A stretch of DNA of 64,000 nt from an uncultured Planctomycetota bacterium. Its GTDB lineage: Bacteria > Planctomycetota > PLA2 > JAEUHO01. The notes beneath the pieces were generated by a model. The model did no database searches. It worked only from the letters and a program-made list of their open reading frames with translations, and was not told where the DNA came from. The stretch spans positions 275,375-339,374 of the forward strand of contig CAVYXV010000004.1 of assembly GCA_963772585.1 (NCBI GenBank), in the 5' to 3' direction. Each line of letters begins with the position of its first letter. The first letter of the stretch is position 1. The translations under genes and the position numbers were made by a program. This document shows positions 17,223-54,912 of the stretch, one piece after another.

Positions 17223-17456
17223 ATGACCGAGGAGTCGCAGGAACAAGGCGGTCGCGTTTGCCTGAAGACCTTGCGGTGTCGTCGCACGGGGCAGATGTAC
17301 CGCGTCGAGCAGCACGTCGAGTGCCCCTATTGCTCGGGCGACGAGGAGACCGTCCGCCGAGGCGGCAGCTACAAGAACTTCTGCGAGTTCCGCCCCGGGG
17401 AGGATCCGGTGGACTTCGGGTTTCCGCCCGACACCGACCGCTTGCGCCACGGGTAG
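17223..17456 (+). CDS. small zinc-ribbon protein (hypothetical)
   Basis: 77 aa with CLKTLRC ... CPYC (four Cys in a 2+2 arrangement), preceded by GGAGAAG about 5 nt upstream of the ATG. In the 40-bp gap after the M64 gene. Confidence 0.4.
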   Translation: MTEESQEQGGRVCLKTLRCRRTGQMYRVEQHVECPYCSGDEETVRRGGSYKNFCEFRPGEDPVDFGFPPDTDRLRHG

Positions 17457-17474
17457 ACCGACGACGGAGGCCTC

Positions 17475-17681
17475 ATGAAGCGACTGATCCTGACGATCCT
17501 CGCCTGCCTGCTCGTCGGGCTGGCGTCCGCCGACGGCTTTGCGCGTGGAGGCCGAGGCTCCTTCGGGGGGGGACGGGCCCGGCGTACCAAGAGCAAGAAG
17601 AACGAAGCCCGCGTGCGGGAGCGCAAGGAGGCCCAGCTTCGAGACAGCCTGCGCGTCGAAGCGGCTCGCGACCGTACCTGA
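17475..17681 (+). CDS. small secreted basic protein (hypothetical)
   Basis: 68 aa: signal peptide MKRLILTILACLLVGLASADG, then an Arg/Lys-rich tail. GGAGG Shine-Dalgarno 4-5 nt upstream. Its stop TGA overlaps the ATG of the next gene (TGATG). Confidence 0.35.
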   Translation: MKRLILTILACLLVGLASADGFARGGRGSFGGGRARRTKSKKNEARVRERKEAQLRDSLRVEAARDRT

Positions 17682-25352: not shown

Positions 25353-25453
25353 GGGCCGAGGATCGCAGGCGACGGCCGCCATGGCCAGCTTGCCGGGAGC
25401 CGGGCCCGGCACGGTGGGCGCTGCCCCGCGCCCGCGCCAGAGGCCCGATCTAT

Positions 25454-25954
25454 GCTCTCGACGTGAGTTCCCTCGCGCTCATCGACGCCTACAACGTCAT
25501 GTTCCGCCGCTGGGGATCCGTGCCCGAGGATCGGGACGCGTCACGAACACGTCTCCTGCGCGAGACGGCCGCCGCGCTCGGGCGTTCGCCGCGGGCCGAC
25601 CGGGCCCACCTGGTCTTCGACACGTGGCAGGGGGCGGCCCGCGCGGGCCTGCGCGGCCGCGATGGGCGGGTGTCCTGGCACTACGCGCACGGCTCCGCCG
25701 ACGAGGCGATCCTCGACCACCTGCGCGGGCACGAAGGCCGGCCCCACGGCGCGCGCCTCCTCGTGGTCACCGACGACCGGGAACTGGCCGGACGCGCGCG
25801 CCAGTTGGGCGCACGGACGATCGGCGTCGTCGCGTTCTACGCGGACACGGGCGATCGACCCTCCCCACGCCGTCGCGGCGTGATCCTCGACGGCCCCCCG
25901 TTCACCGCGCGGGACTTCGACCTGCCGGACGGCCCGATCGATCTCACCGAGTGA
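25454..25954 (+). CDS. NYN/YacP-like PIN-domain protein (putative RNase)
   Basis: VSSLALIDAYNVMFRRWG... then ...ARLLVVTDDRELAGRARQLGARTIGV at the C-terminus, the typical YacP-like NYN arrangement. The GTG at 25454 is chosen because the ORF-track ATG at 25343 would overlap the divergent chaN start. Confidence 0.5.
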   Translation, partial: ALDVSSLALIDAYNVMFRRWGSVPEDRDASRTRLLRETAAALGRSPRADRAHLVFDTWQGAARAGLRGRDGRVSWHYAHGSADEAILDHLRGHEGRPHGARLLVVTDDRELAGRARQLGARTIGVVAFYADTGDRPSPRRRGVILDGPPFTARDFDLPDGPIDLTE

Positions 25955-25972
25955 TCCGGCGGGGGGCCGGGA

Positions 25973-27343: not shown

Positions 27344-27451
27344 GGTGCCTCCTGGTCGCGGGACGTGCTTCAAGAGGCATCATCAGGGGGGACCGCGCCC
27401 GTGGCCAACCTGGGCGGCAGTGGGTAGGGTGGGCGGATCCGGAGTCCCCGC

Positions 27452-29164: not shown

Positions 29165-29192
29165 GCCGTTCTTCGACCTTGCCCGCGTCGTT

Positions 29193-29287
29193 CACGAACG
29201 GACGCCCCATCGCGCGGCCCGGGGAACGGGGAGCGGGACCCGCGGGGCCCTGGTGCTCCTTCACGGTCCACGACCCAGGGCTGTCCC
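29193..29287 (+). repeat. dispersed structured intergenic repeat, copy D (internally deleted, about 95 bp)
   Basis: cacgaacggacgccccatcgcgcggccc...gctccttcacggtccacgacccagggctgtccc retains the 5' 25 bp and 3' 45 bp of the family and lacks the middle. Begins 29 nt after the ade stop, between convergent genes. Confidence 0.5.
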
Positions 29288-29365
29288 TCCGTGGTGTTCG
29301 CTTCCGATCACCGCCAGGCCAGCGCGCCGCACGGCCGCATGGATGGGAGCTTGCGGCACGGCACG

Positions 29366-30136
29366 CTAGAACCGCCAGACCCCGGAGATGGGGAGGAGGA
29401 GGAGGAGGATCGCCGCCAGCCCGAGGCTGATCCAGCGTGCGAGCGACACGAAGCTCCCGTCCTCCCGGAGCAGGACCCTCGCCCACGAGCTCTCGAGATC
29501 GGGTCGGACGCCGGCCGGCAGGTCGATGCGTTCGAGGCGCAGCCAGGCGTCGAGGATCCCGACCGCCCCGACGAAGAGCAGCGCCGGGCCCATGCGTCCG
29601 ATCAGCGCTCCGAGGAGGAGGATGGTCAGGCGATCGGACCTCGTCCACAAGCCCGAGGTGTCGGCGAGGCGCAGGGGGCCGCCGATGGCGCGGAGCATGG
29701 GCAACCACGCTTCGAGCACGAAGACGACGAGGGCCAGGAAGAGGACGAAGGGGGCGCTCCGTCCGGCGACGTCGCCCACGACACCCGCGACGAAGAGCAG
29801 GTCCACGAGCGGAACCACGGCGCGGGCGAGCGTTCGCGTGTCCCGGTAGACGGCCCCGGCGGGGACGCGGGCGAGCTCCGAGGCGCCCAGGGCGACGAAG
29901 CCCAGCACCGCGGCGATGCCCGGGTGATGGGCGAGGAGCACGAGGGCCGCCGTGACGGCGAAGACCAGCGAGAAGACGAGCAGCGCGCCGGGGCTTACGC
30001 CCTGGGCGTGCATCCAGTGGGCGAGGCGGATCCGGATCGGGACGGCGGGTTGGGCGGTCGCCGGCGGTGCCCCCTCGGGCGGCGCGATCTCGGCGACACG
30101 GGGTTCCCGGGAGGGGGCGAGGACATCGGTGGACAT
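29366..30136 (-). CDS. polytopic membrane protein (hypothetical; possibly CDP-alcohol-transferase-like)
   Basis: Start MSTDVLAPS... at 30136 with AGGAGG 7 nt upstream. About 7 predicted transmembrane helices (LLVFSLVFAVTAALVLLAHH, LVDLLFVAGVVGDVAG, FVLFLALVVFVLEAWL, ...). Confidence 0.5.
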   Translation of the reverse strand: MSTDVLAPSREPRVAEIAPPEGAPPATAQPAVPIRIRLAHWMHAQGVSPGALLVFSLVFAVTAALVLLAHHPGIAAVLGFVALGASELARVPAGAVYRDTRTLARAVVPLVDLLFVAGVVGDVAGRSAPFVLFLALVVFVLEAWLPMLRAIGGPLRLADTSGLWTRSDRLTILLLGALIGRMGPALLFVGAVGILDAWLRLERIDLPAGVRPDLESSWARVLLREDGSFVSLARWISLGLAAILLLLLPISGVWRF

Positions 30137-30218
30137 GGCAGCCTCCTGCAATCGGAGAGTAGCCCTGTCCTCTCCGGATGTCCGCCCGGCATGAAGACCG
30201 CGTTGCGACGGTCCCCGT

Positions 30219-30767
30219 TCAGGAGTCGCCGGCACCGACGACCGCCCCGATCCAGGGGAGGTGGCGGTAGCTCTCCGCCCAGTCGATGCCGTAGCCCACC
30301 AGGAACTCGTTCGCCACGCGGAATCCGACGTAGTCGCCCTCGCACGCCACGACCCGACGGCTCGGCTTGTCGAGCAGCACGCAGGTCTCGATGCTCGCGG
30401 CGCCGCGGGCGAGCAGCAGGCGGCGGGCTTCGTCCAGCGAACGACCGCTGTCCAGGATGTCGTCGATCACGAGCACCATGCGCCCCGTCAGGTCCGTCGT
30501 CGGTTCGGCGCGGACGTCCACGACGCCGCGGCTCTTCGTGCCCGCGCCGTAGCTGGCGAGCGAGAGGAAGTCGATCTGGGGGCGCAGGCCGTGGCGATGG
30601 AGCGCCCGGACCAGATCGGCCGCGAAGACGAAGGCGCCCTTGAGAAGGACGATCAGCACGGGCGGCGGCGCCGGACCGGGGGGATGCGCGGCCGCGATCT
30701 CCTCTGCCAGGCGTTCGACGCCGGCGGCGATCTCTTCTTCGGAGATTCTCGGCGAGACGTCGGCCAA
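30219..30767 (-). CDS. hpt: hypoxanthine-guanine phosphoribosyltransferase
   Basis: ISEEEIAAGVERLAEEI...VLIVLLKGAFVFAADLVRAL...IDFLSLASYGAGTKSRGVV...GRMVLVIDDILDSGRSL... gives the PRPP-binding VLVIDDILDSG motif and Hpt order. TTG start with GGAGGA upstream. This is the real C-terminal part of the 1355-aa shadow ORF 30219-34286(-). Confidence 0.85.
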   Translation of the reverse strand: MADVSPRISEEEIAAGVERLAEEIAAAHPPGPAPPPVLIVLLKGAFVFAADLVRALHRHGLRPQIDFLSLASYGAGTKSRGVVDVRAEPTTDLTGRMVLVIDDILDSGRSLDEARRLLLARGAASIETCVLLDKPSRRVVACEGDYVGFRVANEFLVGYGIDWAESYRHLPWIGAVVGAGDS

Positions 30768-30836
30768 CGCGCGTCCTCCCACGCCCACGGGGGAATCGCG
30801 TATCCTATGCCGGCGTCCCCGGGGAGTGCAGCAACC

Positions 30837-33422
30837 ATGCGCGTGCACACCGCCACGGTCCGGCTGGCTCTCGTTCTCGCGCTGCTCCTGCCGGCGGCGC
30901 CGCTCCTCGCCGCGGAGCGGGAGGTCGCGAGGGACGACGGGGAGCAGGCGGGCAAGCAGAGCATCGCGGGCACCGGGCACGGGATCCTCTTCGACGCGCC
31001 GAAGCGCGAGCGTTGGATCACCGCCGTCCGCGTCCACGGCGCGCGCTACGGCGGAGGCTACGACCCCGCGACCGCCACCTTCCACGTCGCCGTCTGCGAC
31101 CAGCACCTCGCCGTCCTTCACGAGATCGAGGCGCCGTACTCCCTCTTCGCCGCGGGGCGTTTCGGGTGGGTGGATGTCCCGCTCGACGTCGCCCTCGAAG
31201 TTCCGGACCGTTTCGCCGTGGTCGTGGCGTTCGATCCCACGGCATCGCGCGGCGTGTTCGTGGGGTGGGCGCACACGGAAGGCAGCCACTCGTTCCAGGG
31301 CCTCCCCGGCGGCGAGAGGCGTCCCGTGGCGACGGACCGCGAGTGGATGATCCGCGCGGTGCTCGCGAGCCGGCCGCCGCGCGACCTGCCGCGCGTGGTC
31401 GAGGTGGCGGTCGAGGACGGGGAGAAGATCGGGGAGAAGAGCCTCGGCGGGAGCGCCCACACCGTCCTCCTGCGCCGACCGTCCGGATCGTGGTGGGTGA
31501 CGACGGTCCGGGTGTACGGACGGCGCTACGGCGGCGGTTACGACCCGGCGAAGACGACCTTCTCGGTCGTCCTCCGCGACCGGCGCGGCAGGGTGCTCGG
31601 CGAGGCCGAGGCGCCGTACGGCGCGTTCGGGACGGGCGGCTTCTCGTGGGTGGACGTGCCGATCCCGAAGGCCCTCGAGATCCCGTCGCGCTTCCTCGGC
31701 ACGGTGGACTTCGAGCCCACCCGCACGAAGGGGGTCTACGTCGCCTACGCGAAGCCGACCGCCAAGGGCGCGGCGTTCACCGGCCGTGCCGACGAGGAGC
31801 CCCGCGACTTCGGCGACGGCGCCTGGATGATCCGTGCGCGCCTCGTGGACCGCGAGCCGCAGCCGCCGGAAGCGATGCCCGAGCCGACGGCCGATCCGGC
31901 GCGCTACCTCGACGACCTCCGTGCCGTCGGGAGGATCGTGGCGAAGAACTTCCCCGTCTTCGAGAAGAAAGGCATCGACTGGAAGACGGTCCTCGACGAG
32001 TTCGAGGCGAGGGTCCGCGACGTCCACGACGACGCGGCGTACGTCCTGGAGATCCACCGCCTCCTGGCGCGGCTCGACGACGTCCACTCGGGCGTGCTCG
32101 ACGCGAAGGTCGACGTGCACGTCCCGTCCTTCGACGGGCTCTACGGCGCGGGACTGTGGATCGCACGCGACCGGGGCCGCCTGCTGCTCCGCGCGGCCAC
32201 GCCGGGCCATCCGCTGCTCGACCGCGTGCCGCCGGGTTCGCTCCTCTTGCGGGTCGGCGGCCGCCCTGCGGGCGTCGTGCTCGCGGAGACGCGCCGCCGC
32301 CTGCACACGTGGCACGGTTGGTCGTCGGACGCCTTCCTCGACGCGCGCCTGTCCTTCCAGTTCTTCCCCTTCGGGGAGGCGAAGACCCTGGAGGCGACGT
32401 TCCTTCCGCTGTCGGGCGGGAGGGCCGTGACGGTGGACCTCGCCCGATGGGGACCCGGGGGCCGGGGGCTCTCGCGCCAGGCGGCGACGATGCCGGACGG
32501 CGTTCCGGCCGAAGGGCCCGTCGCCTCGGCGAAGCTGGCGGGGGAGATCGGCTACCTCCGCATCCTCGGCGGGATGGACGAGCGGACGGAGAAGGCCTTC
32601 TTCGAGGCCGTGGACGGTCTGAAGGGCGTGAAGGGGATCCTGCTGGACGCTCGCGGCATGGGCGGGGGATCGGACCGCCCCGCCTGGCGGATGGCGGGGC
32701 GCTTCTTCTCGAAGCGCCGTCGTCTGCCCAACGATCCCGACCTCGAGCCCACCGGCGACTGGCCGTTCGACGGCCCCGTCGTGATGCTCCAGGACGAACG
32801 CATGGTCTCCTCCGCGGAGACGTTCACGTGGGCCATGGTCGAGACGGATCGCGCGCTGTCGGTGGGGCGTCCGACCGGCGGCGGCACGATCATCCCCCGC
32901 GTGTTCGACGACCCCGCGGGCCTGTTCCGGTTCCGCCTGGGCTGCGTCGATCGCGAGACGTCCGTGGAGGGCGTCCACCCCGAAGGCGTGGGTACGGCGC
33001 CGGACGTGTTCGTGCCCTACGACGCGTGGCTGCTCGCGCTCCACCCCGACCCCGTGCGCGCGGTGGGCCTCGACGTCCTGCGGCGCCTCGTCCAAGGCCA
33101 GCCCGCCGAGGTCGTGGCCGCGGGGTACGGCGGCGTGCTGGGCGCGGCGCCCGACCGTCTGGGAGACGGCGCGTGGAAGGCGTTCGCCGCCCTCGCCGAG
33201 CCCGCGGGCCTCGACCTCCCGGGGCTCTGCCCCCATGCGGCCCGGCGCATGATCGACGAGGAGATCCGCGTCCACGACGCCGAGGCCGACCCGGTGCCGG
33301 ACGGGGGCGGGTCTTCGGAGCGGCTCGCCGCCCTCGCCCGCGTGGCGGACGCGGTGGGGCTCGAGGACGCGGCGCGCCGTGCGCGCGAAGCTCTCGAGGC
33401 CTGGCTCTCGGAGGGCCGGTGA
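30837..33422 (+). CDS. secreted S41-family serine peptidase with two tandem-duplicated N-terminal domains
   Basis: Signal peptide MRVHTATVRLALVLALLLPAAPLLAAE. Two homologous modules of about 100 aa (RWITAVRVHGARYGGGYDPATATF...GRFGWVDVPLDVALEVPDRF... and WWVTTVRVYGRRYGGGYDPAKTTF...GGFSWVDVPIPKALEIPSRF...). The C-terminal part has ...GYLRILGGMDE...GILLDARGMGGGSDRPAWRMAGRF...VVMLQDERMVSSAETF..., matching the S41 Ser/Lys-dyad region. Confidence 0.7.
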   Translation: MRVHTATVRLALVLALLLPAAPLLAAEREVARDDGEQAGKQSIAGTGHGILFDAPKRERWITAVRVHGARYGGGYDPATATFHVAVCDQHLAVLHEIEAPYSLFAAGRFGWVDVPLDVALEVPDRFAVVVAFDPTASRGVFVGWAHTEGSHSFQGLPGGERRPVATDREWMIRAVLASRPPRDLPRVVEVAVEDGEKIGEKSLGGSAHTVLLRRPSGSWWVTTVRVYGRRYGGGYDPAKTTFSVVLRDRRGRVLGEAEAPYGAFGTGGFSWVDVPIPKALEIPSRFLGTVDFEPTRTKGVYVAYAKPTAKGAAFTGRADEEPRDFGDGAWMIRARLVDREPQPPEAMPEPTADPARYLDDLRAVGRIVAKNFPVFEKKGIDWKTVLDEFEARVRDVHDDAAYVLEIHRLLARLDDVHSGVLDAKVDVHVPSFDGLYGAGLWIARDRGRLLLRAATPGHPLLDRVPPGSLLLRVGGRPAGVVLAETRRRLHTWHGWSSDAFLDARLSFQFFPFGEAKTLEATFLPLSGGRAVTVDLARWGPGGRGLSRQAATMPDGVPAEGPVASAKLAGEIGYLRILGGMDERTEKAFFEAVDGLKGVKGILLDARGMGGGSDRPAWRMAGRFFSKRRRLPNDPDLEPTGDWPFDGPVVMLQDERMVSSAETFTWAMVETDRALSVGRPTGGGTIIPRVFDDPAGLFRFRLGCVDRETSVEGVHPEGVGTAPDVFVPYDAWLLALHPDPVRAVGLDVLRRLVQGQPAEVVAAGYGGVLGAAPDRLGDGAWKAFAALAEPAGLDLPGLCPHAARRMIDEEIRVHDAEADPVPDGGGSSERLAALARVADAVGLEDAARRAREALEAWLSEGR

Positions 33423-44399: not shown

Positions 44400-45707
44400 T
44401 CAGCGATCGTAGAGGACGAGGATGCGGCACCCCTGTACGAGGGGGTGGAAGAAGATCGGGTTGCCCAAGGCGGGGTCCATCAGGGGGCCCCGCTCGACGG
44501 CGAAGTCCCTCATCGCCTTCACGATGTCGTCCCGGGCCGCCGCGTCGCCCCGGCGGAGCCGGATGGCCCCCGACAGCAGGCGGTCCACCGCGTCCTTCGG
44601 GTTCGTGGCGAGATCCTTCTCCATCTCGGCGAGGGGCCCGTTCGCCGCGGGCATCCCGTCCCGGAGGTAGAGGGCCCGGACGGCCTTGGCTCGGAAGGCG
44701 TACGGTCCGCCCGTCGGCGCCTGCTGCCACCAGGCGAGAAGCCGCTTCGACGCCTCCTCGTCACCGAGGTGCCAGCGATGGACCAGGACCTGCAGGTAGG
44801 CCTCCACGAAGAACGGACCCATTCCGTCGCTCTTCAGGACCTCCTTCGCGGCCGCCAGCGCCTCCCAGCGACCGCCGGCCGCCTCGCCGATGGCGGCCAT
44901 GGCGACGTCGCCCGGGGAGATCTGCTTGTCGCCGTCTGCCGCCCGACGGATCACGTCGGCGAGCACGGCCATTCCCGCCGGGTCCTCCATGCGCCCGAGG
45001 GAGCGGCACGCGATGCTCCAGATGAGCCGCTGGTTCGGAGCGACCGGCTTGCCGACGACGGTCCGGAGGATCTCCAGGTCGTGATCCCGTTCGGGGTAGG
45101 GGTCCTTCGAGGCGGCGAGGATCGCCGCCCCGAGGTCGCCCTCCGCGTCGTCGCGGGCGCGGAGCGCGTCGATCATCGCCGTGCGGACGTGATCCGTGCC
45201 GAAGGTCTGCGTGGCGAGGAAGATGTCCTGGATCGCCTCCCAGGGCTCGTCCTCGACCCGGCTCGCCAGGAGTTCCTCGGCGCGGGGGTCGCCGCCGTCG
45301 GCGAGGATGGAGAGCACCACGTTCTGGGGCCCGCGCGGCTGTTCGAGGGTCTCGTCCTCGCCCCATGCGCTGGTCTCCAGGATCGCCGTTGCGAGCCTCC
45401 GCCCGCTTCCCACCTGCTTGCGGAGGGTGGGGTCGTCCCAGACGGCATCGATGGCCATCGCCGGAATGCCGGACTTGAGGAGGGAGCGCACGGCGAACCA
45501 GCGGGCCTCGGCGAGGTGGCCGTAGAGGTCCAGGTAGCGCTTGTGGGCCTCGACGGCCTTCACCTGGGCCTCGGGATCGGGCTCCTGCATGCGCCAGTAG
45601 ATGCGGAGTTGGTTCTCCTCGACGCTCCGGCGATCGCCGGTGGATGCCCTCCAGACGACGACGCCGAGCAGGATGACGACCACGAGAGGGGGGAGCAGAC
45701 GCATCAT
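44400..45707 (-). CDS. membrane-anchored hypothetical protein
   Basis: Start MMRLLPPLVVVILLGVVVWRAS (a single N-terminal transmembrane segment), then about 410 aa of helical sequence with no recognised motif. It lies in a tandem arrangement upstream of glnN. Confidence 0.5.
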   Translation of the reverse strand: MMRLLPPLVVVILLGVVVWRASTGDRRSVEENQLRIYWRMQEPDPEAQVKAVEAHKRYLDLYGHLAEARWFAVRSLLKSGIPAMAIDAVWDDPTLRKQVGSGRRLATAILETSAWGEDETLEQPRGPQNVVLSILADGGDPRAEELLASRVEDEPWEAIQDIFLATQTFGTDHVRTAMIDALRARDDAEGDLGAAILAASKDPYPERDHDLEILRTVVGKPVAPNQRLIWSIACRSLGRMEDPAGMAVLADVIRRAADGDKQISPGDVAMAAIGEAAGGRWEALAAAKEVLKSDGMGPFFVEAYLQVLVHRWHLGDEEASKRLLAWWQQAPTGGPYAFRAKAVRALYLRDGMPAANGPLAEMEKDLATNPKDAVDRLLSGAIRLRRGDAAARDDIVKAMRDFAVERGPLMDPALGNPIFFHPLVQGCRILVLYDR

Positions 45708-45824
45708 GGGCGAAGGGACCTGGGCTTGGGAAGAAGCCGTGTGGATTCCGTACTCGATCGTGGCCCGCAGCCCGCGGGAGCCTACCATGGGGCTTCCGGA
45801 GACAAGACCCCGGGAGGAGTCGAC

Positions 45825-46232
45825 ATGCGCGTATCCCTAGCCCTCGTGCTGCTGGCCGTCCTGGGCTTCGGCCTGAGCACCCTCGCCCGGACCATCCCTG
45901 CCCGGGCCGAGGACGCCGACCAGGAGCAGAACCGGTTGCTGAAGAAGCGGATCGAGATCCTGGAGCTCCAGGTCGCCTACCTGCTCGACCGGGAGCAGGA
46001 CCTGACGACCTACGCGACCCTGCACACCCCCCGAGCCAGGAACCTGTCGGACAGCCTCCACCGCTCCCGCGCCGAGGGCTTCACGCAGGCGGCGATCTCC
46101 TCGACGTCGCGGGAGCTCCTCCTGGGCGGCCTCGAAGCCGAGGCCCGCGCCATGCAGGAGAAGGTGCCGGTGGTGACAAAGGAGCAGCAGCGCCTCCTGA
46201 AGGAAGTCGACGCCCGCAAGCGCGCTCCCTAG
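45825..46232 (+). CDS. small secreted coiled-coil protein (hypothetical)
   Basis: GGGAGGAG Shine-Dalgarno 6 nt before the ATG. MRVSLALVLLAVLGFGLSTLARTIPARA signal peptide, then heptad-like EQNRLLKKRIEILELQVAYLLDREQDL.... Confidence 0.45.
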   Translation: MRVSLALVLLAVLGFGLSTLARTIPARAEDADQEQNRLLKKRIEILELQVAYLLDREQDLTTYATLHTPRARNLSDSLHRSRAEGFTQAAISSTSRELLLGGLEAEARAMQEKVPVVTKEQQRLLKEVDARKRAP

Positions 46233-46254
46233 CCGGCACGGCAGCCCGCACGAC

Positions 46255-46548
46255 CCACGAACGGACGTCGAATCGCGCGGCCCTCGTGTCCGGGGCCGGG
46301 GAGGGCTCCCAGGAGGCGAGTGCGGCGGGCGAGAGGGATCCCGCCCGGCGTCTTGTCGTTGGCCTCTCACGCCCGGAGCCTCGGTTGCTCGTCGTCGGCG
46401 ACCCCAAGGGGTCGCCTCCTCCTCGCGCCTCGGCCTCGACCCCGAGCGATGCGCCCGGGCACCCCGTGGACGGGGAACGAGACCCGCAGGGCCCCGTCGC
46501 TCCTTGACGGTCCACGACGTCGGGCTGTCCCGTCGCGCGCGTCGCGGG
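46255..46548 (+). repeat. dispersed structured intergenic repeat, copy B (full length)
   Basis: Collinear with copy A, with several indels including a 1-nt length difference, so it cannot be a conserved CDS. Hairpin GGCGACCC-caa-GGGTCGCC at 46397-46416 (same stem as copy A, different loop). Starts 23 nt after the stop of the 45825-46232 gene and ends about 90 nt before the stop of the convergent exonuclease gene. Confidence 0.7.
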
Positions 46549-46636
46549 TAGACGTACGGAAGCCAGGACAGGAACCGCGGCGATGTCGCACCGCGGGTGC
46601 GGGCGAGCCGCCCGAGGGGCACGCTCGCACCCCGTC

Positions 46637-47749
46637 CTACGCCGGCTTCCCCACCCTCCGCCGCCGGAGTCTCGCCTCGCGGTGGCGCAGCGCTTCCTCC
46701 GCGCGGCTCCCGCGCGGCACCTGCTCCAGGGCGCGTTCGACCCAGACGAGCGCGCCCTCGTAGTCGCGCCGGCGGTGTTCGAGGAGCTTCGCCACGTGCT
46801 CGTGCGCCTCCAGGTGGAAGCGGCCGTCGAGCGTCGCCAGCCGTTCGAAGCACGCGAGCGCGCGGTCGAAGACGCCGGTCCGGCGGTACTGGTGGGCGAG
46901 CGCCTCCAGGACGCGGCGGAGGTCGTCGCCGCCGGCCCGGTCGGCGGCGTCCTCCAGGCAGGCCAAGGCGTCGTCGGGGCGATCCAGGTCGAGCAGCAAC
47001 CGCGCCGTCGAGGGGGCGTCGCCGGGGCACGTGTCCCTGCGCCCGTCGGTCCCGTCCAGCACCCGGGCGATCCGTCCCATCAGGGCGACCATGCTGATCA
47101 CGTCGTCGGCGTTGTGCACGAAGGCCCGGGCGACCTCGCGCGGGTCTCCGGTCCGGAGGTAGTCGAAGTACGCCTGCGGGACGAGTTCGCTCGGGAGGTC
47201 GTCCTTCCGGACGAAGCCGAGGACCTCGCGCTCCAGGGCGCCCAGGCGGTGCGACGCGAGGCTCCGGGCCCACAGTCGCCGCGCCGGGACGAGCAGGTCG
47301 AGGTGCGCGCGCGGCGCGGGTTCGATCCGCTTCATGCGGAAGCGCGTGACGAGGAGGGGCCAGTCGAACGTTCGTCCGTTGAACGTGACGAGGGGGTGGT
47401 CGGCGAGGTCCTCGGCGAGCGCCTCGAGCATCGCGTCCTCTTCCGGATAGTCGCGGATGCCGTACTGGCGGATGACGAGGTCGTCGCTTTCGACGCGCCC
47501 CGTGCCGACGAGGAACGCGACGGTGCCCGTCCCGCCGGCGAGGCCCGTGGTCTCCGTGTCGAGGAAGAGCGCGTCCCGGGGGGAGAGAGCGACCCGCCCG
47601 CCGTTCCCCCGCTCCGCGCCGCGGAGCGGAACCGAGTGGCGGATCGCCTCGGCGAGCCGTCCGGTTCCGTGGAGACGATCGAGCGGGACGCGCCGCTCCG
47701 CCTGCAGGAACGGTCCACGGCTCGTCGAGCGCAGGCTTCCCCCGACCAT
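46637..47749 (-). CDS. DEDD-type 3'-5' exonuclease (RNase H-like, YprB/MrfB-like) with a C-terminal helical/TPR-like region
   Basis: ...ALFLDTETTGLAGGTGTVAFLVG... (Exo I motif DxE), ...LVTFNGRTFDWPLL... (Exo II), ...FVHNADDVISM... (Exo III). This is the real C-terminal portion of the 1478-aa shadow ORF 46637-51073(-). Confidence 0.65.
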   Translation of the reverse strand: MVGGSLRSTSRGPFLQAERRVPLDRLHGTGRLAEAIRHSVPLRGAERGNGGRVALSPRDALFLDTETTGLAGGTGTVAFLVGTGRVESDDLVIRQYGIRDYPEEDAMLEALAEDLADHPLVTFNGRTFDWPLLVTRFRMKRIEPAPRAHLDLLVPARRLWARSLASHRLGALEREVLGFVRKDDLPSELVPQAYFDYLRTGDPREVARAFVHNADDVISMVALMGRIARVLDGTDGRRDTCPGDAPSTARLLLDLDRPDDALACLEDAADRAGGDDLRRVLEALAHQYRRTGVFDRALACFERLATLDGRFHLEAHEHVAKLLEHRRRDYEGALVWVERALEQVPRGSRAEEALRHREARLRRRRVGKPA

Positions 47750-48061
47750 CGAACCCAGGTCCGGTCCCTGCCATCGAGGCGGACGGGGGGCCGGCGGTTC
47801 GGCTCCCCGCTGGACGGCCAGCGCCCGGAGTCGCTCGCGGACGCCGGGTCGGCCCGGCCCGTCCTCGGCGACCACGGGCCGGGGATCGCCCCGACCGTCT
47901 CCGAGCGTCGATCGGATGAGGGAACGGCGCACGGTCACACCCGGGATTCTACGCGTCGGCTCCCCCGGGGACGCGGGCGCGGGCGATCCGCGCGTAGACT
48001 CTCGCGCCTGGCCGCGTCCGTGCCGGTCGAGCGGAGTGCAGGGCGGGGCCCGGAGGTCTCC

Positions 48062-51000
48062 ATGCGCGGATGGTTCTGGGGCGTCCTGCTCCTGCTCCTG
48101 CTCTGGGCGGCGGGAATTGCCCAGGCGGCCGAGGAGGCGACGTGGGTGCGCTACCCCGTCCTCTCGCCGGACGGGCAGCGGATCGTGTTCACGTACCGGG
48201 GCGACCTCTGGACCGTGCCCGTGGTCGGCGGGGAGGCCGCGAGGCTCACGAGCCACGAGGGCGTCGAGACCCGTCCGGTCTGGTCCCACGACGGGACCCG
48301 CATCGCCTTCGCCTCGGACCGCCACGGCGACTTCGACGTCTTCGTCGTCCCCTCGACCGGAGGGCGCGCCGTCCGGCTGACGTGGCACTCCGCCGCCGAC
48401 TTTCCCTGCGACTTCGACGAGGCGGACACGCGGGTCCTCTTCACCAGCGCCCGCCAGGACGCCGTGGAGGCCCTTCTCCCGAGCCACCGCATCCCCGAGC
48501 TCTGGTCCGTGCCGGTCGAGGGGGGGCGCCCTCGCCGCGAGTTGACGACGCCCGCCGCGTGGGCACGCGTCTCGCCCGACGGCAAGCGTCTCGCGTACGA
48601 GGACCGCAAGGGATACGAGAACACATGGAGGAAACACCACGTGTCTCCCGTCGCCCGCGACGTCTGGATCTACGACCGCGAGACGGGTCACCACCGGCGG
48701 CTGACGGACTTCGGGGGCGAGGATCGCAATCCGGTGTGGCTTCCCGACGGCACCTCGATCGCGTACCTGAGCGAGCGCGACGGGAGCTTCAACGTCTACC
48801 GGGAGGGCCCGGACGGTCGCGAGCAACTGACGTCGCACGACACGAATCCCGTCCGCTTCCTGTCCGCCGCCCGCGACGGGACCCTCGGATACGGCTGGAA
48901 CGGCACCGTCTGGGTCCGACCCCCGGAGGGCCCATCCCGGCGGGTGCCGATCCTGGTCGCCACCGACGATCGGAAGAACGACATCGAGCGCGAGACCCTC
49001 GAAGGCGAAGCGACGGACATGGCCGTCTCGCCCGACGGCGAGGAGGTCGCCTTCGTCGTCCACGGGGAGGTCTTCGTCGCCTCGGTCGAGTACGGAGCGA
49101 CGAAGCGGATCACCTCCACGGTGGAGCAGGAGCGCTCGGTGGCCTGGGCGCCGGATGGAAAGACCCTCTACTACGCGTCCGAGCGGCATCGCGACGGGTC
49201 CGACCTCCCCTCCTGGAACATCTACAAGGCATCCCTGGCCCGCGAGGACGACGAGCAGCTGCACCGCGCGACGCTCGTCCACGAGGAAGCCGTCCTGGAG
49301 GACGCCCGCGAGAGCTTCCAGCCCGTGCCGTCCCCGGATGGCAAGCACCTGGCGTTCCTGCGCGACCGCGACGAGATCTGCGACCTCGACCTCGGCACGG
49401 GCGAGATCCGCACGCTCGTGCCGTCCCGGGAGAACTACTCCTACGCCGACGGCGACATCGACTACTCGTGGTCGCCCGACTCGCGGTGGCTCGCGGTGAT
49501 CTACCTGCCCAACCACCGCTGGATCGAGCAGGTGGGCGTCGTCGAGGTCGCGACCGGGACCGTCCGGGACGTCACGTTCTCCGGCTACTACGAGGCCGAG
49601 CCCCGGTGGTCCCCGGACGGCCGGGCGCTCGCCTTCCGCTCGAACCGCTACGGGCGCCGCAGCCACGGCTCGTGGGGGAGCGACGAGGACGTCCTGGCGA
49701 TCTACCTCACCCAGGCGGCCTACGACCGCGCGACGCTCTCCGAGGAGGACTTCGACCGGCAGCGGGACAAGGAGGACGAGGAACGGGAGAAGAAGGAGAA
49801 GGAGCGCGAGGAAGAGGGGGCCGAGGGGGAGACAGAGGACGGCGGCGAAAGCCCTCCGCCCCCGCCCGTCGCCATCGACTTCACGCGGGTCGATCGGCGG
49901 CTTCGCCGCCTCACGCTCCACTCCGCGCCCATCTCCGACTTCGTGATCTCCAACGACGGCGAGGCCTGTCTCTACACCGCCGAGATGGACGGTCGGTGGG
50001 ACGTGTGGATGGCGCGTCCGCGGGAAGGCGAGACCCGTCGGGTGGTGCGCCTGGGCGACCGGGGCGGGCCGTCGATCGAGCTCTCCCAGGACGGGGAGAC
50101 CCTCTTCATCCGGCGGGAGGACGGGCGCATCGCGACGGCCGACGTGGGCGGCCTCCTCGAGGACGACGAGCGCCGCGGCCGGGACGACGAGGACGAGAAC
50201 CGCGACTCCGGGGGGCGCTCCGCTCGCGCGGAGCCCGTCGACTTCCGGGCGCGGCTGGAAATCGACCGCCTTGCCGAACGCAAACACCTCTTCGAGCACA
50301 TCTGGCGGCAGGTCAGCGAGAAGTTCTACCGCCCGGACCTCCACGGGGTGGACTGGCCGGCGATGCGGGCGAACTACGAGCGGTTCCTGGATCAGGTCGA
50401 CAACGGCTACGAGTTCGCCGAGCTGGTGAGCGAGATGCTCGGCGAGCTGAACGCCTCGCACACCGGCTGCTACTTCCGCCCGGATCCCGACGAGAAGGAC
50501 GCGACCGCCTCGCTGGGCCTCCTCTTCGGGGACGGTCGCGAGGGAGAAGTCGGCATGCCCGTGGCCGAGGTCCTGGAGGGAGGACCCGCCGCCGAGGCCG
50601 ACTGCCCGCTCCGGGCGGGCCACGTGCTGCGGGCGATCGACGGGGAGCGTCTCGAGCCCGCCGTGAACCCCTGGCGCCTGCTGGAGGGCAAGGCCGACCG
50701 CCGCGTCCGGCTCTCCCTCCAGGACGACAAGGGCGGGGCCTACGAGTGCGTGGTCCGTCCGATCACGCTCCGCGAGGAGTCGGACCTCCTGTACCGCCGC
50801 CTGATCGAGCGCCGGCGGGCGATCGTCGACCAGGCCTCGCACGGGCGCATCGGCTACGTGCACGTCGCGGGCATGAACGACCAGAGCTTCCGCGAGACCT
50901 TCCGCGAGACCTTGGGCCGCGACGCGGACCGGGAGGCCCTCATCGTGGACACCCGCTACAACGGCGGCGGCTGGCTGCACGACGAGCTCGTGGTCTTCCT

Positions 51001-51409
51001 CTCGGGCCGGCACTACATGGACTTCGTCCCGCGCGGCAAGAAGCCGGGCGATCTGGGCGGCGAGCCGCTGCATCGCTGGGACAGGCCGTCATGCGTGCTC
51101 GTGAGCGAGGGGAACTACTCCGACGCCCACCTCTTTCCGGAGGCCTACCGCATGCACGGCATCGGCAAGATCGTCGGGGCTCCCGTCGCCGGGACCGGCA
51201 CCGCCGTGTGGTGGGAACACCTGATGGACCCGCGCTTCGTGTTCGGGATCCCCCAGGTCGGCATGATGGACGCGCAGGGCCGGTACATGGAGAACCACAC
51301 GCTCGTGCCCGACGTGCTCGTCCTGACCGATCCCGAGAAGATCGCCGCCGGCACGGACGAACAACTCCTGGCCGCCGTCAGCGTCCTCCTCGACGAACTC
51401 GACCGCTGA
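48062..51409 (+). CDS. tricorn-protease-like S41 peptidase (TolB-type beta-propellers + PDZ-like + S41 catalytic domain)
   Basis: Signal peptide MRGWFWGVLLLLLLWAAGIAQA. Repeated ...SPDGQRIVFTYRGDLW..., ...SHDGTRIAFASDRHGDFDVF..., ...SPDGKRLAY... blades. C-terminal ...IGYVHVAGMNDQSF...LIVDTRYNGGGWLHDELV...CVLVSEGNYSDAHLFP... S41 core. Two acidic low-complexity inserts. Confidence 0.8.
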   Translation: MRGWFWGVLLLLLLWAAGIAQAAEEATWVRYPVLSPDGQRIVFTYRGDLWTVPVVGGEAARLTSHEGVETRPVWSHDGTRIAFASDRHGDFDVFVVPSTGGRAVRLTWHSAADFPCDFDEADTRVLFTSARQDAVEALLPSHRIPELWSVPVEGGRPRRELTTPAAWARVSPDGKRLAYEDRKGYENTWRKHHVSPVARDVWIYDRETGHHRRLTDFGGEDRNPVWLPDGTSIAYLSERDGSFNVYREGPDGREQLTSHDTNPVRFLSAARDGTLGYGWNGTVWVRPPEGPSRRVPILVATDDRKNDIERETLEGEATDMAVSPDGEEVAFVVHGEVFVASVEYGATKRITSTVEQERSVAWAPDGKTLYYASERHRDGSDLPSWNIYKASLAREDDEQLHRATLVHEEAVLEDARESFQPVPSPDGKHLAFLRDRDEICDLDLGTGEIRTLVPSRENYSYADGDIDYSWSPDSRWLAVIYLPNHRWIEQVGVVEVATGTVRDVTFSGYYEAEPRWSPDGRALAFRSNRYGRRSHGSWGSDEDVLAIYLTQAAYDRATLSEEDFDRQRDKEDEEREKKEKEREEEGAEGETEDGGESPPPPPVAIDFTRVDRRLRRLTLHSAPISDFVISNDGEACLYTAEMDGRWDVWMARPREGETRRVVRLGDRGGPSIELSQDGETLFIRREDGRIATADVGGLLEDDERRGRDDEDENRDSGGRSARAEPVDFRARLEIDRLAERKHLFEHIWRQVSEKFYRPDLHGVDWPAMRANYERFLDQVDNGYEFAELVSEMLGELNASHTGCYFRPDPDEKDATASLGLLFGDGREGEVGMPVAEVLEGGPAAEADCPLRAGHVLRAIDGERLEPAVNPWRLLEGKADRRVRLSLQDDKGGAYECVVRPITLREESDLLYRRLIERRRAIVDQASHGRIGYVHVAGMNDQSFRETFRETLGRDADREALIVDTRYNGGGWLHDELVVFLSGRHYMDFVPRGKKPGDLGGEPLHRWDRPSCVLVSEGNYSDAHLFPEAYRMHGIGKIVGAPVAGTGTAVWWEHLMDPRFVFGIPQVGMMDAQGRYMENHTLVPDVLVLTDPEKIAAGTDEQLLAAVSVLLDELDR

Positions 51410-51412
51410 CGA

Positions 51413-51548
51413 CGACCGCAGGCTCCGCGCGCGAGAGGCGGACGACCGATGGGTCGGGCGGGATCCCTCTCGCCCGCCGGACTCGCCTCCTTGGAGCCCT
51501 CGCGGCCCCGGACACGGGGGCCGCGCGATTCCACGTCCGTTCGTGGGT
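51413..51548 (-). repeat. dispersed structured intergenic repeat, copy C (5' about 110 bp of the family plus divergent remainder, reverse orientation)
   Basis: The reverse complement reads ccacgaacggacgtggaatcgcgcggcccccgtgtccggggccgcgagggctccaaggaggcgagtccggcgggcgagagggatcccgcccg.... Its 5' end is 31 nt after the helicase stop (co-oriented), and it fills the gap to the tricorn stop. Confidence 0.55.
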
Positions 51549-51578
51549 CGTGCCCGCTGGATCCGCGGCGTTCCCCGC

Positions 51579-53957
51579 CTACGCGGGGCCGGCGATCGCG
51601 TCGAGGATCCGGCCGGCGACGGCCTTGGCCCGTTCGCCCACCTCGCCACGTGGGCCGACGCAGCTCGGACAGCCGTCCGGGCAGGGACACGCGGCCAGCC
51701 GCCGCCGGGCGCCGCGGAGCAGGTCGCCCATCCGCGGATGGAGGGCCTCGGCGAGGCCGATGCCGCCCGAGTACTGGTCGTAGAGGAACACCGTCGGCTC
51801 GAAGCGGTCCAGGGCCGGCGGCTCGGGGGAGGGGTGGCCCGGGTAGGGCGGCCGCGAGAACCACTCGCGGGAGCGGTCGCCGATGACGACGCCGAGATCG
51901 CGTCCGTCGCACATGAGCAGGAGCGAGGCGAGGCCGTGCGCCAGGTGGGCCATCCCGTGCAACGCGTCCTGCACGTCGCTGGCCGACACGCCGAGCTCGC
52001 GGATGACCCCGTTCGGAACGGTGAACCACGCGGCCTGGGTGTGGTAGGTGTCTTCGGGGAGCAGGACGTCGCCCCAGCCGAGGTTCTCCTGCGTGTAGAA
52101 CTTGATCTTCTTGTAGCCCACGGCCTTGCGGACGACCTGCACCTCGCCGTACTCGACGGGCGCGGCGTCGTCTTCGCGGGCGTCCCGCAGGACGTGAAGG
52201 ATCTTGACCTGGGCGTAGCTCAGCGCGTCCGTGTAGTACTCGGAGTCCACGCGGCGGACGAAGGCCTTGCGGCGCTCCCAGTCGAGCTTGTCCACGTGGT
52301 ACTGCTCGGACTGCACCATGTAGATGGCGCCCTCGTGGATCGTCGTGAAGGCCCAGGCGTAGTCCACTTCGGCGATGACCTCGTTCCGGTCGTTCGTGGT
52401 GTCCACGACGACGAAGTTCGTGGAGGTGACGCTCCGCAACGACAGGTCGTTGGCGGGGTAGGCGTCGGCCGACCAGTGCCAGCGTCCCCCGGTGTGCCGT
52501 AGGCGCCCCTCCTCCTCCAGGTAGGCGAGGATCTCGGGGACGTCCTCGGCCCCCTCGCCCTCGGCGTAGCGCTCGCCGTCCTCCACGGGAAGCTCGAACG
52601 CGGCGCACTTGAGGTGGCTCGCCAGGATCTGGAGGTTGTTCGGGTTGACCTGCGCGCACTCCGGCGAGGCGTCGAGGAGGAAGCCGGGATGGTCCGCGAG
52701 GTACTGGTCGAGCGGGTGGCTCCGCAGCACGAGGACGGCGGCGCTGGCGCCCTGCCGGCGCCCCGCGCGGCCGGCCTGCTGGCGGGTGCTCGCCACGGTG
52801 CCGGGGTAGCCCGCGATGACGCAGGCGTCGAGGGATCCGATGTCGATCCCGAGCTCCAGGGCGTTCGTGGACACGACGCCGAGGATCGACCCGTCGCGCA
52901 GGCCCCGCTCGATGGCCCGGCGCTCCCGAGGGAGGTACCCGCCGCGGTAGCCGACGACCCTCGGATGCGGGTCGATGTCGCGTCGGAAGAGGTCCTTCAG
53001 GTACTTCGTCATGACCTCGGTCGTGGTGCGCGCGCCGGCGAAGACGATCGTGTGGATCCGCGAGGACAGGAACCGTGTTGCGACCTCGCGGGCAACGCGC
53101 AGGTACGAGGCCCTCAAGCCCAACGCGGGATTGACGAGCGGGGGATTCACGATGAGGACGTGGCGCTCTCCGAGCGGCGCGCCGTTCTCCTCGACCACGG
53201 AGACCGGACGTTCGAGCAGACGCTCGGCGAGCTCCCGCGCGTTGCCGATGGTGGCGCTGGTCGCGACGAAGAGGGGGTCCGACCCGTGGAAGCGGCAGAT
53301 GCGCCGAAGCCTCCTCAGGACGTTCGCGAGGTGGCTGCCGAAGACCCCGCGGTAGGTGTGGAGTTCGTCGAGCACCACCATCTCGAGGTTCTCGAAGAGA
53401 CGCATCCACCGGGCGTGGTGGGGCAGGACGGCCGTGTGGAGCATGTCCGGGTTGGAGATCACGACCTGGGCGCGGTCGCGGATCACGCGGCGCTCACCCG
53501 GGGGGGTGTCGCCGTCGTAGACGGCCGCGGCGAGATCGCCGGTTGCCGCCTCCATGAGCGCCTGCAACTCCGCCGCCTGGTCGCGGGCCAGGGCTTTCGT
53601 CGGGAAGAGGTAGAGCGCCCGGGCCCCCGGGCGTCGGACGAGCGCCTCGAGGACCGGGAGGTTGTAGCAGAGGGTCTTCCCGCTCGCCGTGGGCGTGACG
53701 ACGACGGTATCGCGGCTCGCGGCGATCCCGTCGTAGGCCTCCCTCTGGTGGCGGTAGAGCCGCTCGATGCCGCGCGAGGCCAACGCGGCCCGCAAGCGCT
53801 CGTCGAGGCCCTCGGGCAGGTCCGCCCAGACGGCTTCGGTGGCCGGCTCCACGCGGTGGACGACCACCCCTTCGCCCAGGAAGGGGTCCCCGAGGATGGT
53901 CTCGACGACCCGGCGGACGTCCTTCGCGGCGACCGGGCCGGACGCGGCCTTCGCCAT
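51579..53957 (-). CDS. DEAD/DEAH-box helicase of the YprA/MrfA type with a C-terminal DUF1998-like four-Cys module
   Basis: Motif I TPTASGKT, DEAD-like VVLDELH, motif III SAT, motif VI QQAGRAGRR, and a C-terminal CPCPDGCPSCV cysteine cluster after ...LYDQYSGGIGLAE.... ATG start at 53957 (MAKAASGPVAAKDV...). Confidence 0.8.
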   Translation of the reverse strand: MAKAASGPVAAKDVRRVVETILGDPFLGEGVVVHRVEPATEAVWADLPEGLDERLRAALASRGIERLYRHQREAYDGIAASRDTVVVTPTASGKTLCYNLPVLEALVRRPGARALYLFPTKALARDQAAELQALMEAATGDLAAAVYDGDTPPGERRVIRDRAQVVISNPDMLHTAVLPHHARWMRLFENLEMVVLDELHTYRGVFGSHLANVLRRLRRICRFHGSDPLFVATSATIGNARELAERLLERPVSVVEENGAPLGERHVLIVNPPLVNPALGLRASYLRVAREVATRFLSSRIHTIVFAGARTTTEVMTKYLKDLFRRDIDPHPRVVGYRGGYLPRERRAIERGLRDGSILGVVSTNALELGIDIGSLDACVIAGYPGTVASTRQQAGRAGRRQGASAAVLVLRSHPLDQYLADHPGFLLDASPECAQVNPNNLQILASHLKCAAFELPVEDGERYAEGEGAEDVPEILAYLEEEGRLRHTGGRWHWSADAYPANDLSLRSVTSTNFVVVDTTNDRNEVIAEVDYAWAFTTIHEGAIYMVQSEQYHVDKLDWERRKAFVRRVDSEYYTDALSYAQVKILHVLRDAREDDAAPVEYGEVQVVRKAVGYKKIKFYTQENLGWGDVLLPEDTYHTQAAWFTVPNGVIRELGVSASDVQDALHGMAHLAHGLASLLLMCDGRDLGVVIGDRSREWFSRPPYPGHPSPEPPALDRFEPTVFLYDQYSGGIGLAEALHPRMGDLLRGARRRLAACPCPDGCPSCVGPRGEVGERAKAVAGRILDAIAGPA

Positions 53958-54093
53958 CGGCGCTCCCGGCACGGGTCCCCGGGTGCGGACCTTCCGCCCC
54001 CGTTGGTCCCGGTCACCCGAGCATACGGGCTGGTGGGGACGCCCCCGACGCCCGTGAGGAACCCTGCCGGCCCGTGGTATCACCCCCGGACGC

Positions 54094-54912
54094 ATGGTTC
54101 GTAGCAAACGCCGCCGCACCGCCTCCGCCGTCTTCCTGCGTCCCGAGGAGATCGAGCGGATGCGGGTGGTCGGCCGGCTCGCCGCCGACATCCTGGCCGC
54201 GATCGAGCCGATGGTCCGGCCCGGAGTCAGCACCGAGGAGATCGACGTGGAGGTCGATGCCCTCACCCGCGCCGCCGGCGCCGTCAGCGCCCCGATGAAC
54301 TATCCCTACGGTGGACCGAACCCGTTCCCGAAGCACTGCTGCACCTCGGTCAACGAGGTCGTCTGCCACGGCATCCCGGACCCCAACCACCTCCTCCGGG
54401 AGGGCGACATCGTCAACGTGGACGTCACGCCCCGCCTGGGCGGCTACCACGGCGACACGTCGAAGACCTTCCTGGTGGGCGAGGTGGATCCGGAGACGCG
54501 CGCGCTCGTCGAGGACACCTTCGAGGCGATGCGCCGCGGCATCGCCATGGTCCGCCCGGGCAACCGGCTCGGCGACATCGGCTACGCGATCCAGAGCTTC
54601 GCGGAGTCGAAGGGCCACTCCGTGGTGCGCCAGTTCGCCGGCCACGGCATCGGCAAGATCTTCCACGGCCCGCCGACCATCTCGCACACCGGTCTGCCGG
54701 GGACGGGGCTCGAGCTGGAGCCCGGGATGACGTTCACGATCGAGCCCATGATCAACCAGGGGCACTGGCGCTGCGAGGTGCTGCCCGATCACTGGACGGC
54801 GATCACCTGCGACCACTCGCTCTCCGCCCAGTTCGAGCACACCGTGGTGGTGACGGAGGACGGCGTGGACGTGCTCACGCTGAGGGACGGCGAGACGTTC
54901 GATCTCGACTGA
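54094..54912 (+). CDS. map: type I methionine aminopeptidase
   Basis: ...EEIERMRVVGRLAADIL... and metal ligands in ...DIVNVDVT...GYHGD...HGIGK...TFTIEPMI...QFEHTVVVTEDG...: pita-bread fold with a complete D, D, H, E, E ligand set. Confidence 0.85.
   Translation: MVRSKRRRTASAVFLRPEEIERMRVVGRLAADILAAIEPMVRPGVSTEEIDVEVDALTRAAGAVSAPMNYPYGGPNPFPKHCCTSVNEVVCHGIPDPNHLLREGDIVNVDVTPRLGGYHGDTSKTFLVGEVDPETRALVEDTFEAMRRGIAMVRPGNRLGDIGYAIQSFAESKGHSVVRQFAGHGIGKIFHGPPTISHTGLPGTGLELEPGMTFTIEPMINQGHWRCEVLPDHWTAITCDHSLSAQFEHTVVVTEDGVDVLTLRDGETFDLD

Follow-up and report, generated by a model that had tools for sequence, protein, structure and literature searches.

Four copies of one non-coding repeat family, about 310 nt long, were identified in the window (the whole stretch of 64 kb analyzed, G+C content 72.7%) by a repeat search combined with profile searches. 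The family is multi-copy and non-coding, it is represented by full-length, truncated and internally deleted forms, and its copies are enriched in gaps between convergent genes. These copies are probably lineage-restricted, dispersed intergenic repeats, that is, a non-autonomous selfish element of the MITE/REP-like type that survives at the 3' ends of genes. The family is best read as a new one, specific to this lineage, within a class of dispersed intergenic repeats that is already known (MITE, REP, SPRITE-like), with copies that have been inserted recently, as with the selfish intergenic repeats of many bacteria. A mobile element residing at gene ends was one of the proposals of the earlier note on this DNA, and it is supported by an empty site orthologous to that of copy B, by the derivative forms, by contig breaks within copies, and by the placement statistics, all described below.

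The copies are the following.

Copy A, 24018-24326, plus strand: full length; between tRNA-Met and the chaN stop (24336), antisense to both.
Copy B, 46242-46548, plus strand: full length; in a convergent gap with stops at 46232 (gene for a 135-aa protein) and 46637 (exonuclease gene).
Copy C, 51403-51561, minus strand: 5' half only, ~159 nt; in a convergent gap with stops at 51409 (tricorn-like protease) and 51579 (MrfA-like helicase).
Copy D, 29179-29301, plus strand: internally deleted; in a convergent gap with stops at 29164 (adenine deaminase) and 29366 (261-aa gene).

The existence of a four-copy family, claimed earlier from inspection of the sequence, is confirmed by the nhmmer E-values, which range from 1e-104 to 2e-9, and by the occurrence of the anchor sequences (see below). 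The copies are 123-309 nt in size and share 84-90% overall identity. In particular, A and B are 85.9% identical over 305 nt, with three small indels, and copy C shares 90.2% of positions with B over 153 nt and 83.6% with A. Copy D, which is 84% identical to B across the 3' module and has an identical 5' anchor, consists of the 5' 42 nt fused to the 3' 84 nt at a CCC microhomology, with ~179 nt of the middle gone; the central hairpin is lost together with it. Copy C has neither the central hairpin nor the 3' module, and its truncated end lies against the stop codon of the protease gene or overlaps with it. Judging by sequence, this combination of full, truncated and internally deleted forms appears typical of decaying mobile repeats.

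The similarity between the copies begins ~14 nt 5' of the anchor, that is, upstream of the start assumed in the earlier note. The right edge of the repeat is fuzzy, with weak similarity continuing for ~20 nt, which in copy A covers the chaN stop, and in copy B weak similarity to A and D may extend to ~46572. The size of a complete copy is about 310-330 nt. No further copies, even degenerate ones, were found in the window by nhmmer with the whole-element, 5', middle and 3' profiles.

Three blocks stand out within the repeat, and copy B is followed by a separate spacer.

5' anchor, 46256-46283 in copy B, plus strand: CACGAACGGACG-N4-ATCGCGCGGCCC, the most conserved block.
Central hairpin, 46397-46416 in copy B, plus strand: GGCGACCC-CAAG-GGGTCGCC, with an 8-bp stem.
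3' module, 46462-46548 in copy B, plus strand: common to A, B and D; includes GCTCCTTSACGGTCCACGAC.
Spacer from copy B to the exonuclease stop, 46549-46636, no strand: 88 nt, missing in relatives.

The 5' anchor is invariant in all four copies, the 4-nt spacer excepted, and its pattern has four matches in the window with 0 expected. The 3' anchor, GCTCCTTSACGGTCCACGAC, occurs three times (in A, B and D) at 0.01 expected matches, and the pattern of the central hairpin, GGCGACCC-N4-GGGTCGCC, occurs twice at 0.07 expected, only within A and B. The stems of the two central hairpins are identical, while three of the four loop bases differ, which suggests that the 8-bp stem is important at the DNA or the RNA level. 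Base pairing is predicted between the 5' and 3' ends of the repeat, and it is exactly these ends that copy D retains. Still, the 3' partner of the anchor helix is changed in D at 5 of 8 positions, breaking three of the eight pairs, and there is no compensation on the 5' side. As the end pairing is not kept in D, the 5' anchor looks conserved at the sequence level, for instance as a putative protein-binding site, rather than as a helix.

The gene layout around the copies was established by GC3 / codon-position GC frame analysis, and the identities of the genes were assigned with Pfam.

tRNA-Met, 23853-23929, minus strand: flank of copy A.
chaN (ChaN), 24336-25412, minus strand: flank of copy A.
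Adenine deaminase (ade), 27452-29164, plus strand: flank of copy D.
261-aa membrane-like gene, 29366-30151, minus strand: flank of copy D.
135-aa gene, 45825-46232, plus strand: secreted coiled-coil-like protein, no Pfam match; upstream flank of copy B.
Exonuclease gene, 46637-47749, minus strand: RNase_H_2 (DEDD-type) with a C-terminal TPR region, YprB/MrfB-like; convergent flank of copy B.
Tricorn-like protease gene, 48062-51409, plus strand: flank of copy C.
DEAD/MZB helicase gene (MrfA-like), 51579-54266, minus strand: flank of copy C.

The names chaN, ade and helicase, given to flanking genes in the earlier note, agree with these assignments (ChaN, adenine deaminase and DEAD/MZB helicase, respectively). 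Relatives of the tricorn-like protease in GTDB are only ~41% identical to it, with no useful synteny.

The copies had been reported to occupy convergent or gene-end gaps, none of them in a promoter region. B, C and D do lie in convergent gaps. Copy A is located in a same-strand gap 88 nt upstream of tRNA-Met, near the expected place of the tRNA promoter. A copy is present in three of the six convergent gaps, in one of the 24 tandem gaps, and in none of the 6-7 divergent ones. Three of the four copies falling into six of 36 gaps corresponds to a hypergeometric P of ~0.01, and this enrichment in convergent gaps is the non-trivial part of the placement observation. The repeat-free convergent gaps are 18, 28 and 50 nt long, and the occupied ones are 404 (B), 201 (D) and 169 (C) nt long, of which 97, 78 and ~10 nt, respectively, are left when the repeat is subtracted.

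The regular distance of 23-31 nt from a stop codon, on which the earlier note relied, holds only for the anchor. Read from the sequence, the stop and the 5' anchor are separated by 23 nt in B, exactly as claimed, by 28 nt in D (29 claimed) and by 33 nt in C (31 claimed); the true start of the repeat is 9, 14 and 17 nt after the stop in B, D and C, respectively. Convergent spacers being short, any insert in them falls within tens of nucleotides of a stop, and the regularity of the stop distances follows mostly from this geometry. For copy A, the stated distance of 9 nt between its end and the chaN stop, on the antisense strand, is accurate. In the orientation chosen in the earlier note three of the four copies follow a co-oriented stop, and for the reverse orientation of the repeat this is true of all four, at 9, 88, 0 and 64 nt. 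Each of B, C and D has one neighbour to which it is sense and another to which it is antisense; a convergent gap gives a co-oriented stop on either strand, and thus the orientation of the element is not assignable from four copies.

The comparison with orthologous loci, made between species and for copy B only, shows the state of the site lacking the repeat. The 135-aa protein encoded upstream of B was used as the query, and four relatives were found in public assemblies, with identities of 66, 64, 50 and 46%. In all four contigs the homologue is followed by a convergent exonuclease gene, and in an 891-kb contig of one relative the order GS-III, HEAT protein, small gene, exonuclease is syntenic. 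The stop-to-stop distance is 19 nt in one relative (L180) and 7 nt in another (L185), and in the remaining two (L182 and L184) the exonuclease frame reaches or overruns the stop of the small gene, compared with 404 nt in the window. No similarity to the repeat was detected at the four orthologous loci, and 20 kb of one related genome are also free of it. Copy B accounts for 307 nt of the 404-nt gap, and a further 88 nt are likewise missing in the relatives. Since the site is empty in four relatives, copy B is a lineage-specific insertion at a place where the genes once abutted, and not an ancestral 3'-UTR.

Indirect evidence for further copies beyond the window comes from three short-read contigs from two other samples, which are 100% identical to the window and break inside the repeat. 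One of them (L001) ends at 46299 and another (L002) at 46523, both in copy B; the third (L183) spans positions 46511 (within B) to 51487 (within C), having both ends inside copies. Breaks of this kind are typical assembler behaviour at multi-copy sequences. Scaled up from four copies in 64 kb, the number in the whole genome would run into the hundreds.

The hallmarks of particular transposition mechanisms were sought at the copy ends and among the neighbouring genes. There are no clear terminal inverted repeats, but only two imperfect complementary blocks of 8-9 nt, CCC[A/G]CGAA and GCGCGCGG, one of which is a self-complementary CGCGCG run; the blocks are degenerate in D. No target-site duplication was seen at A, B or D with any plausible boundary, the edges being fuzzy by about ±10 nt, and no target motif is shared by the four left junctions (..GCTC, ..ACGG, ..GATC, ..CCTT). 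Transposase, RAYT and integrase families had no match among the 29 window proteins scanned, a set that covers the genes up to about 54 kb.

In public collections, an exact-pattern scan for the 5' anchor yielded no matches in 185,579 GTDB species genomes, JGI metagenome contigs and IMG/VR, and blastn of copy B produced no match among PLSDB plasmids and INPHARED phages. The 3' anchor has 96 matches in metagenome contigs, all of them in unrelated coding sequences, mostly in one conserved membrane-protein gene, with no flanking similarity to the repeat. As far as can be seen from these searches, which relied on exact matches or blastn and may miss divergent relatives, the repeat family appears to be confined to this uncultured lineage.

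Several classes of known genetic elements were considered as identities for the repeat. A small protein-coding gene was rejected, as 1-nt indels among A, B and C shift every reading frame; the six-frame query of copy B against 5.8 billion proteins had no match. With Rfam 15, the only hit in the window reaching the gathering score is the tRNA, and no family matches the region of B (the best hit has 23 bits, below the gathering score of 50, and E = 0.38). A group II intron fragment, an integron attC site, a CRISPR and a riboswitch were set aside, given no Rfam signal and the wrong context. The anchors contain no convincing match to a sigma-70, ECF or sigma-54 promoter, and a Rho-utilisation site was discarded as there is no C>G skew on either strand.

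The other main proposal of the earlier note was a terminator or 3'-UTR module. It can be formulated as a terminator lacking a U-tract, maybe bidirectional, or an mRNA-stabilising 3' module, either original or co-opted, whose GC hairpins would arrest RNA polymerase or make it pause, or would hold back 3' exonucleases, where convergent genes end. Such a role would be compatible with a mobile origin as well, SPRITE and REP being examples: mRNA upstream of REP/BIME elements can be stabilised by them, and SPRITE resembles a Rho-independent terminator (PMC3184786, PMC10969869). Consistent with it, all four copies are located where genes end, and three have convergent neighbours, a setting in which collisions caused by read-through would matter; the stem of the central hairpin is also conserved, with a variable loop. 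Moreover, U-tract terminators are indeed scarce in the window, as had been asserted, with 10 combinations of a hairpin and a U-tract against ~14 expected by chance, none at gene ends. The consensus fold of A and B also scores better than column shuffles, a lenient type of control, on the plus strand (z = -2.8, 1 of 100; z = -1.5 on the minus strand), and this leaves room for a possible function at the RNA level. However, the hairpins described earlier as strong do not exceed what is expected from composition. The minimum free energy of the plus strand of copy B is -163.7 kcal/mol, with a mean of -169.9 for dinucleotide shuffles (z = +1.0), and z is -0.7 for the minus strand, so that single-sequence folding is no better than in shuffles on both strands; according to these predictions, the GC hairpins of copy B are what any 75% GC sequence would yield. 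The covariation between A and B is not significant, with three double changes against 1.5 ± 0.9, a value reached in 64 of 500 shuffles of an alignment of two full-length sequences only. Neither copy B nor its surroundings contain terminator-like sites (no hairpin with a U-tract on either strand of 45700-46800), and the sequences that come after the central hairpin, TCCTCCTCGC on the plus and GACGACGAGC on the minus strand, are not U-tracts. Copy A is antisense to the sole gene that ends beside it; copies C and D persist despite missing the central hairpin; and the C-over-G skew of a Rho-utilisation site is missing. Finally, the element is missing from three of the six convergent gaps (the ones of 18, 28 and 50 nt), and the gene pair that flanks copy B lacks it in four relatives as well (0-19 nt between stops); hence the repeat is not a general means of 3'-end formation, contrary to the suggestion of a lineage-specific solution in a genome poor in U-tracts. 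Overall, a terminating or stabilising module is unlikely. A combined possibility is a mobile, self-spreading terminator cassette, inserted at abutting or overlapping convergent genes and serving there as a U-tract-less bidirectional stop or insulator. Here the 8-bp GC hairpin and the flanking structure would act as the stop or insulator in a 73% GC lineage that would have almost no canonical intrinsic terminators, and gene ends that collide in relatives would become parted by a structured spacer of 170-400 nt; we consider this version quite unlikely.

Two further explanations were weighed. The copies might be paralogous genes for a structured non-coding RNA of ~300 nt outside Rfam, with their own promoters in the gaps, the 5' anchor serving as a promoter or a 5' domain and the paired ends closing the fold. 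The predicted pairing of the ends, just those retained by copy D, the better consensus fold on the plus than on the minus strand (z values given above), and the blocky conservation, with invariant anchors and variable loops, point in this direction. On the other hand, there is no Rfam match near the gathering score in a search with a cut-off of E <= 10, copy B contains no sigma-70-like promoter and no terminator, copy C is devoid of the entire 3' half, three of the eight pairs of the anchor helix are broken in D and remain uncompensated, and the covariation is not significant. The family is also missing in the relatives, the site of B being empty in four of them, which is unusual for functional RNA genes, and this explanation is very unlikely. 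Alternatively, the copies could be scars of site-specific or homologous recombination, such as att-like sites or the ends of larger segments. Two pairs of copies, A and D in direct and B and C in inverted orientation, each bracket ~4.85 kb (4852 nt separate the end of A and the start of D, and 4854 nt separate the end of B and the truncated end of C), and copy A is situated 88 nt from tRNA-Met, beside a perfect tandem array (183 nt x 2.8) that repeats the tRNA 3' end. Against this, the equality of the spacings rests on the arbitrary truncation point of C, and the bracketed genes are ordinary chromosomal ones (chaN, beta-eliminating lyase, ade, exonuclease, protease), with no integrase or recombinase among them. 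Moreover, the exonuclease gene is syntenic in the repeat-free relatives, and the B-C segment therefore was not acquired as one piece. Scars of this sort are highly improbable. A composite transposon made of B and C was excluded on the same synteny.

The reading that we favor, a selfish dispersed repeat, suggests the following course of events. The element would have spread within the genome and would remain mainly in short spacers at gene 3' ends, above all between convergent genes. Its mobilisation may depend in trans on an enzyme whose gene lies elsewhere in the genome, and the bipartite 5' anchor together with the 8-bp hairpin are the likeliest candidates for the recognition sites. The bias towards gene ends could result from purifying selection against hits in genes and promoters, to which a preference for terminator-like DNA possibly adds, and the proximity to stop codons would be a by-product of landing in gaps of 0-50 nt. 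Termination, mRNA stabilisation or antisense insulation by the repeat, possible but unsupported, would be secondary.

The family has many features in common with described systems, and the bias towards convergent gene ends is known for the REP elements of P. syringae and for pneumococcal SPRITE (PMC3184786). Like REP/BIME elements, the repeat is GC-rich, hairpin-forming, non-coding and extragenic, and it prefers convergent gaps (three of six here, against one of ~30 other gaps). However, REPs are imperfect palindromes of 20-40 nt, often clustered, with a conserved 5' tetranucleotide and a link to RAYT, while the repeat is a mosaic of ~310 nt with one strong 8-bp hairpin, and no RAYT is found among the 29 window proteins scanned. 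SPRITE matches in concept the proposal of the earlier note, but it is ~105 nt long and AT-rich, with a hairpin and a U-tract, whereas the repeat is three times longer, has no U-tract and shares no sequence with it. Bacterial MITEs (Correia/CREE of Neisseria, ERIC/IRU, RUP, RIME of Rhizobium) are likewise short, non-coding, multi-copy intergenic insertions with full and internally deleted variants and empty sites in relatives, and they can be transcribed into stable structures; still, the classical ones carry distinct terminal inverted repeats and are flanked by target-site duplications (TA for Correia), whereas in the repeat the former are not clear and the latter were not seen. The IS200/IS605-derived PATEs, and other elements that lack both terminal inverted repeats and duplications, resemble the repeat in having hairpins close to their ends and no duplication. 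PATEs, however, insert 3' of a fixed target of 4-5 nt, giving a shared motif at the left junction, while the four left junctions here differ, and neither TnpA nor TnpB is present among the 29 proteins scanned. Hence, the repeat has the defining features of none of these systems, being too long for a REP and lacking the U-tract of SPRITE, the clear inverted repeats and the target duplications of MITEs, and the target of IS200/IS605 derivatives.

If the repeat is indeed a selfish dispersed element, it adds one more lineage-specific family of intergenic repeats, explains the fragmentation of short-read assemblies of this organism, provides a marker for strain typing, and cautions annotators against reading function into the position of a repeat. 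It would matter more if the copies truly terminate or insulate convergent transcription, as it is understood only in part how 3' ends are defined in bacteria of very high GC content that lack U-tract terminators; if a mobile element installed these signals, it would link genome parasitism with the way in which the boundaries of transcription units evolve.

The 46549-46636 spacer between copy B and the exonuclease stop, which is not clearly part of the repeat family, has a hairpin of its own at 46595-46632, with 15-nt arms that are 87% complementary.

The genes for an MrfA-like helicase and a YprB/MrfB-like exonuclease normally form one operon. In the window (at 46637-54266) they are split by a gene for a tricorn-like protease lying on the opposite strand, and copies B and C of the dispersed non-coding repeat (A to D being the copies in the window) are found on the outer sides. 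The features of this region, together with the corresponding segment of L180, one of the four relatives that carry the gene pair of copy B and lack the repeat, are as follows.

46549-46636: 88-nt spacer separating copy B from the stop of the exonuclease gene
46637-47749, minus strand: YprB/MrfB-like RNase_H_2/TPR exonuclease
48062-51409, strand opposite to that of the helicase and exonuclease genes: tricorn-like protease
51579-54266, minus strand: MrfA-like helicase with DEAD and MZB domains
L180 (ENA ERZ25039514 contig_4483), 12524-17464: mobile-element genes directly after the exonuclease gene

The exonuclease comprises 370 aa in the window vs. 689 aa in L180, where its gene is followed by two IS91-family (Y2 transposase) copies, a DDE transposase gene and an IS21 IstB gene. 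Since these mobile-element genes come directly after the exonuclease gene, its neighbourhood is a mobile-DNA hotspot in the relative as well, the elements being different from those in the window. The spacer next to copy B is missing in all four relatives and contains a separate hairpin (arms 46595-46609 and 46618-46632, 87% complementary); it could have come in by a second insertion, or belong to the element in a longer form.

The distance from the end of copy A to the start of copy D, which are in direct orientation, is 4852 nt (24327-29178), and that from the end of copy B to the truncated end of copy C, in inverted orientation, is 4854 nt (46549-51402). The near-equality of these lengths is probably a coincidence, as the end of copy C is a truncation point. 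Two large tricorn/S41-type protease genes, 30261-33422 and 48062-51409, are observed less than 20 kb apart, and the gap beside each of them holds a repeat copy: copy D upstream of the former, and copy C at the 3' end of the latter.

Copy A is located beside a tRNA gene with a tandem array.

23379-23929: tandem array and tRNA-Met, 183-nt unit repeated 2.8 times at 100% identity

The tRNA-Met(CAT) gene occupies 23853-23929 on the minus strand, with the 183-nt units directly downstream, each of them containing a copy of the final ~32 nt of tRNA-Met and of the subsequent GC hairpin (GCCCCCTCTCGGCCGGAGGGGGC). The array could have arisen by recent tandem duplication; alternatively, it could be an artefact of assembly, or the att-like footprint left by an integrative element. 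In the adjacent region of about 1.7 kb (21624-23378) long ORFs are present on both strands, while GC3 scoring gave no confident coding signal and Pfam no match; the DNA here, upstream of the tRNA tandem array, may be non-coding or may be a gene that evolves rapidly.

Inside the gene of a TPR protein (17681-19303), ARAGORN calls a 95-nt tRNA-Phe (18403-18497, minus strand), which is not reported by the Rfam tRNA model and is likely to be a false positive. GAC/GAG repeats of 9-nt periodicity, forming a long run at 5009-5254, encode the extremely acidic (Asp/Glu-rich) C-terminal tail of the following protein.

3873-5261: CDP-alcohol phosphatidyltransferase-domain protein with an acidic C-terminal tail
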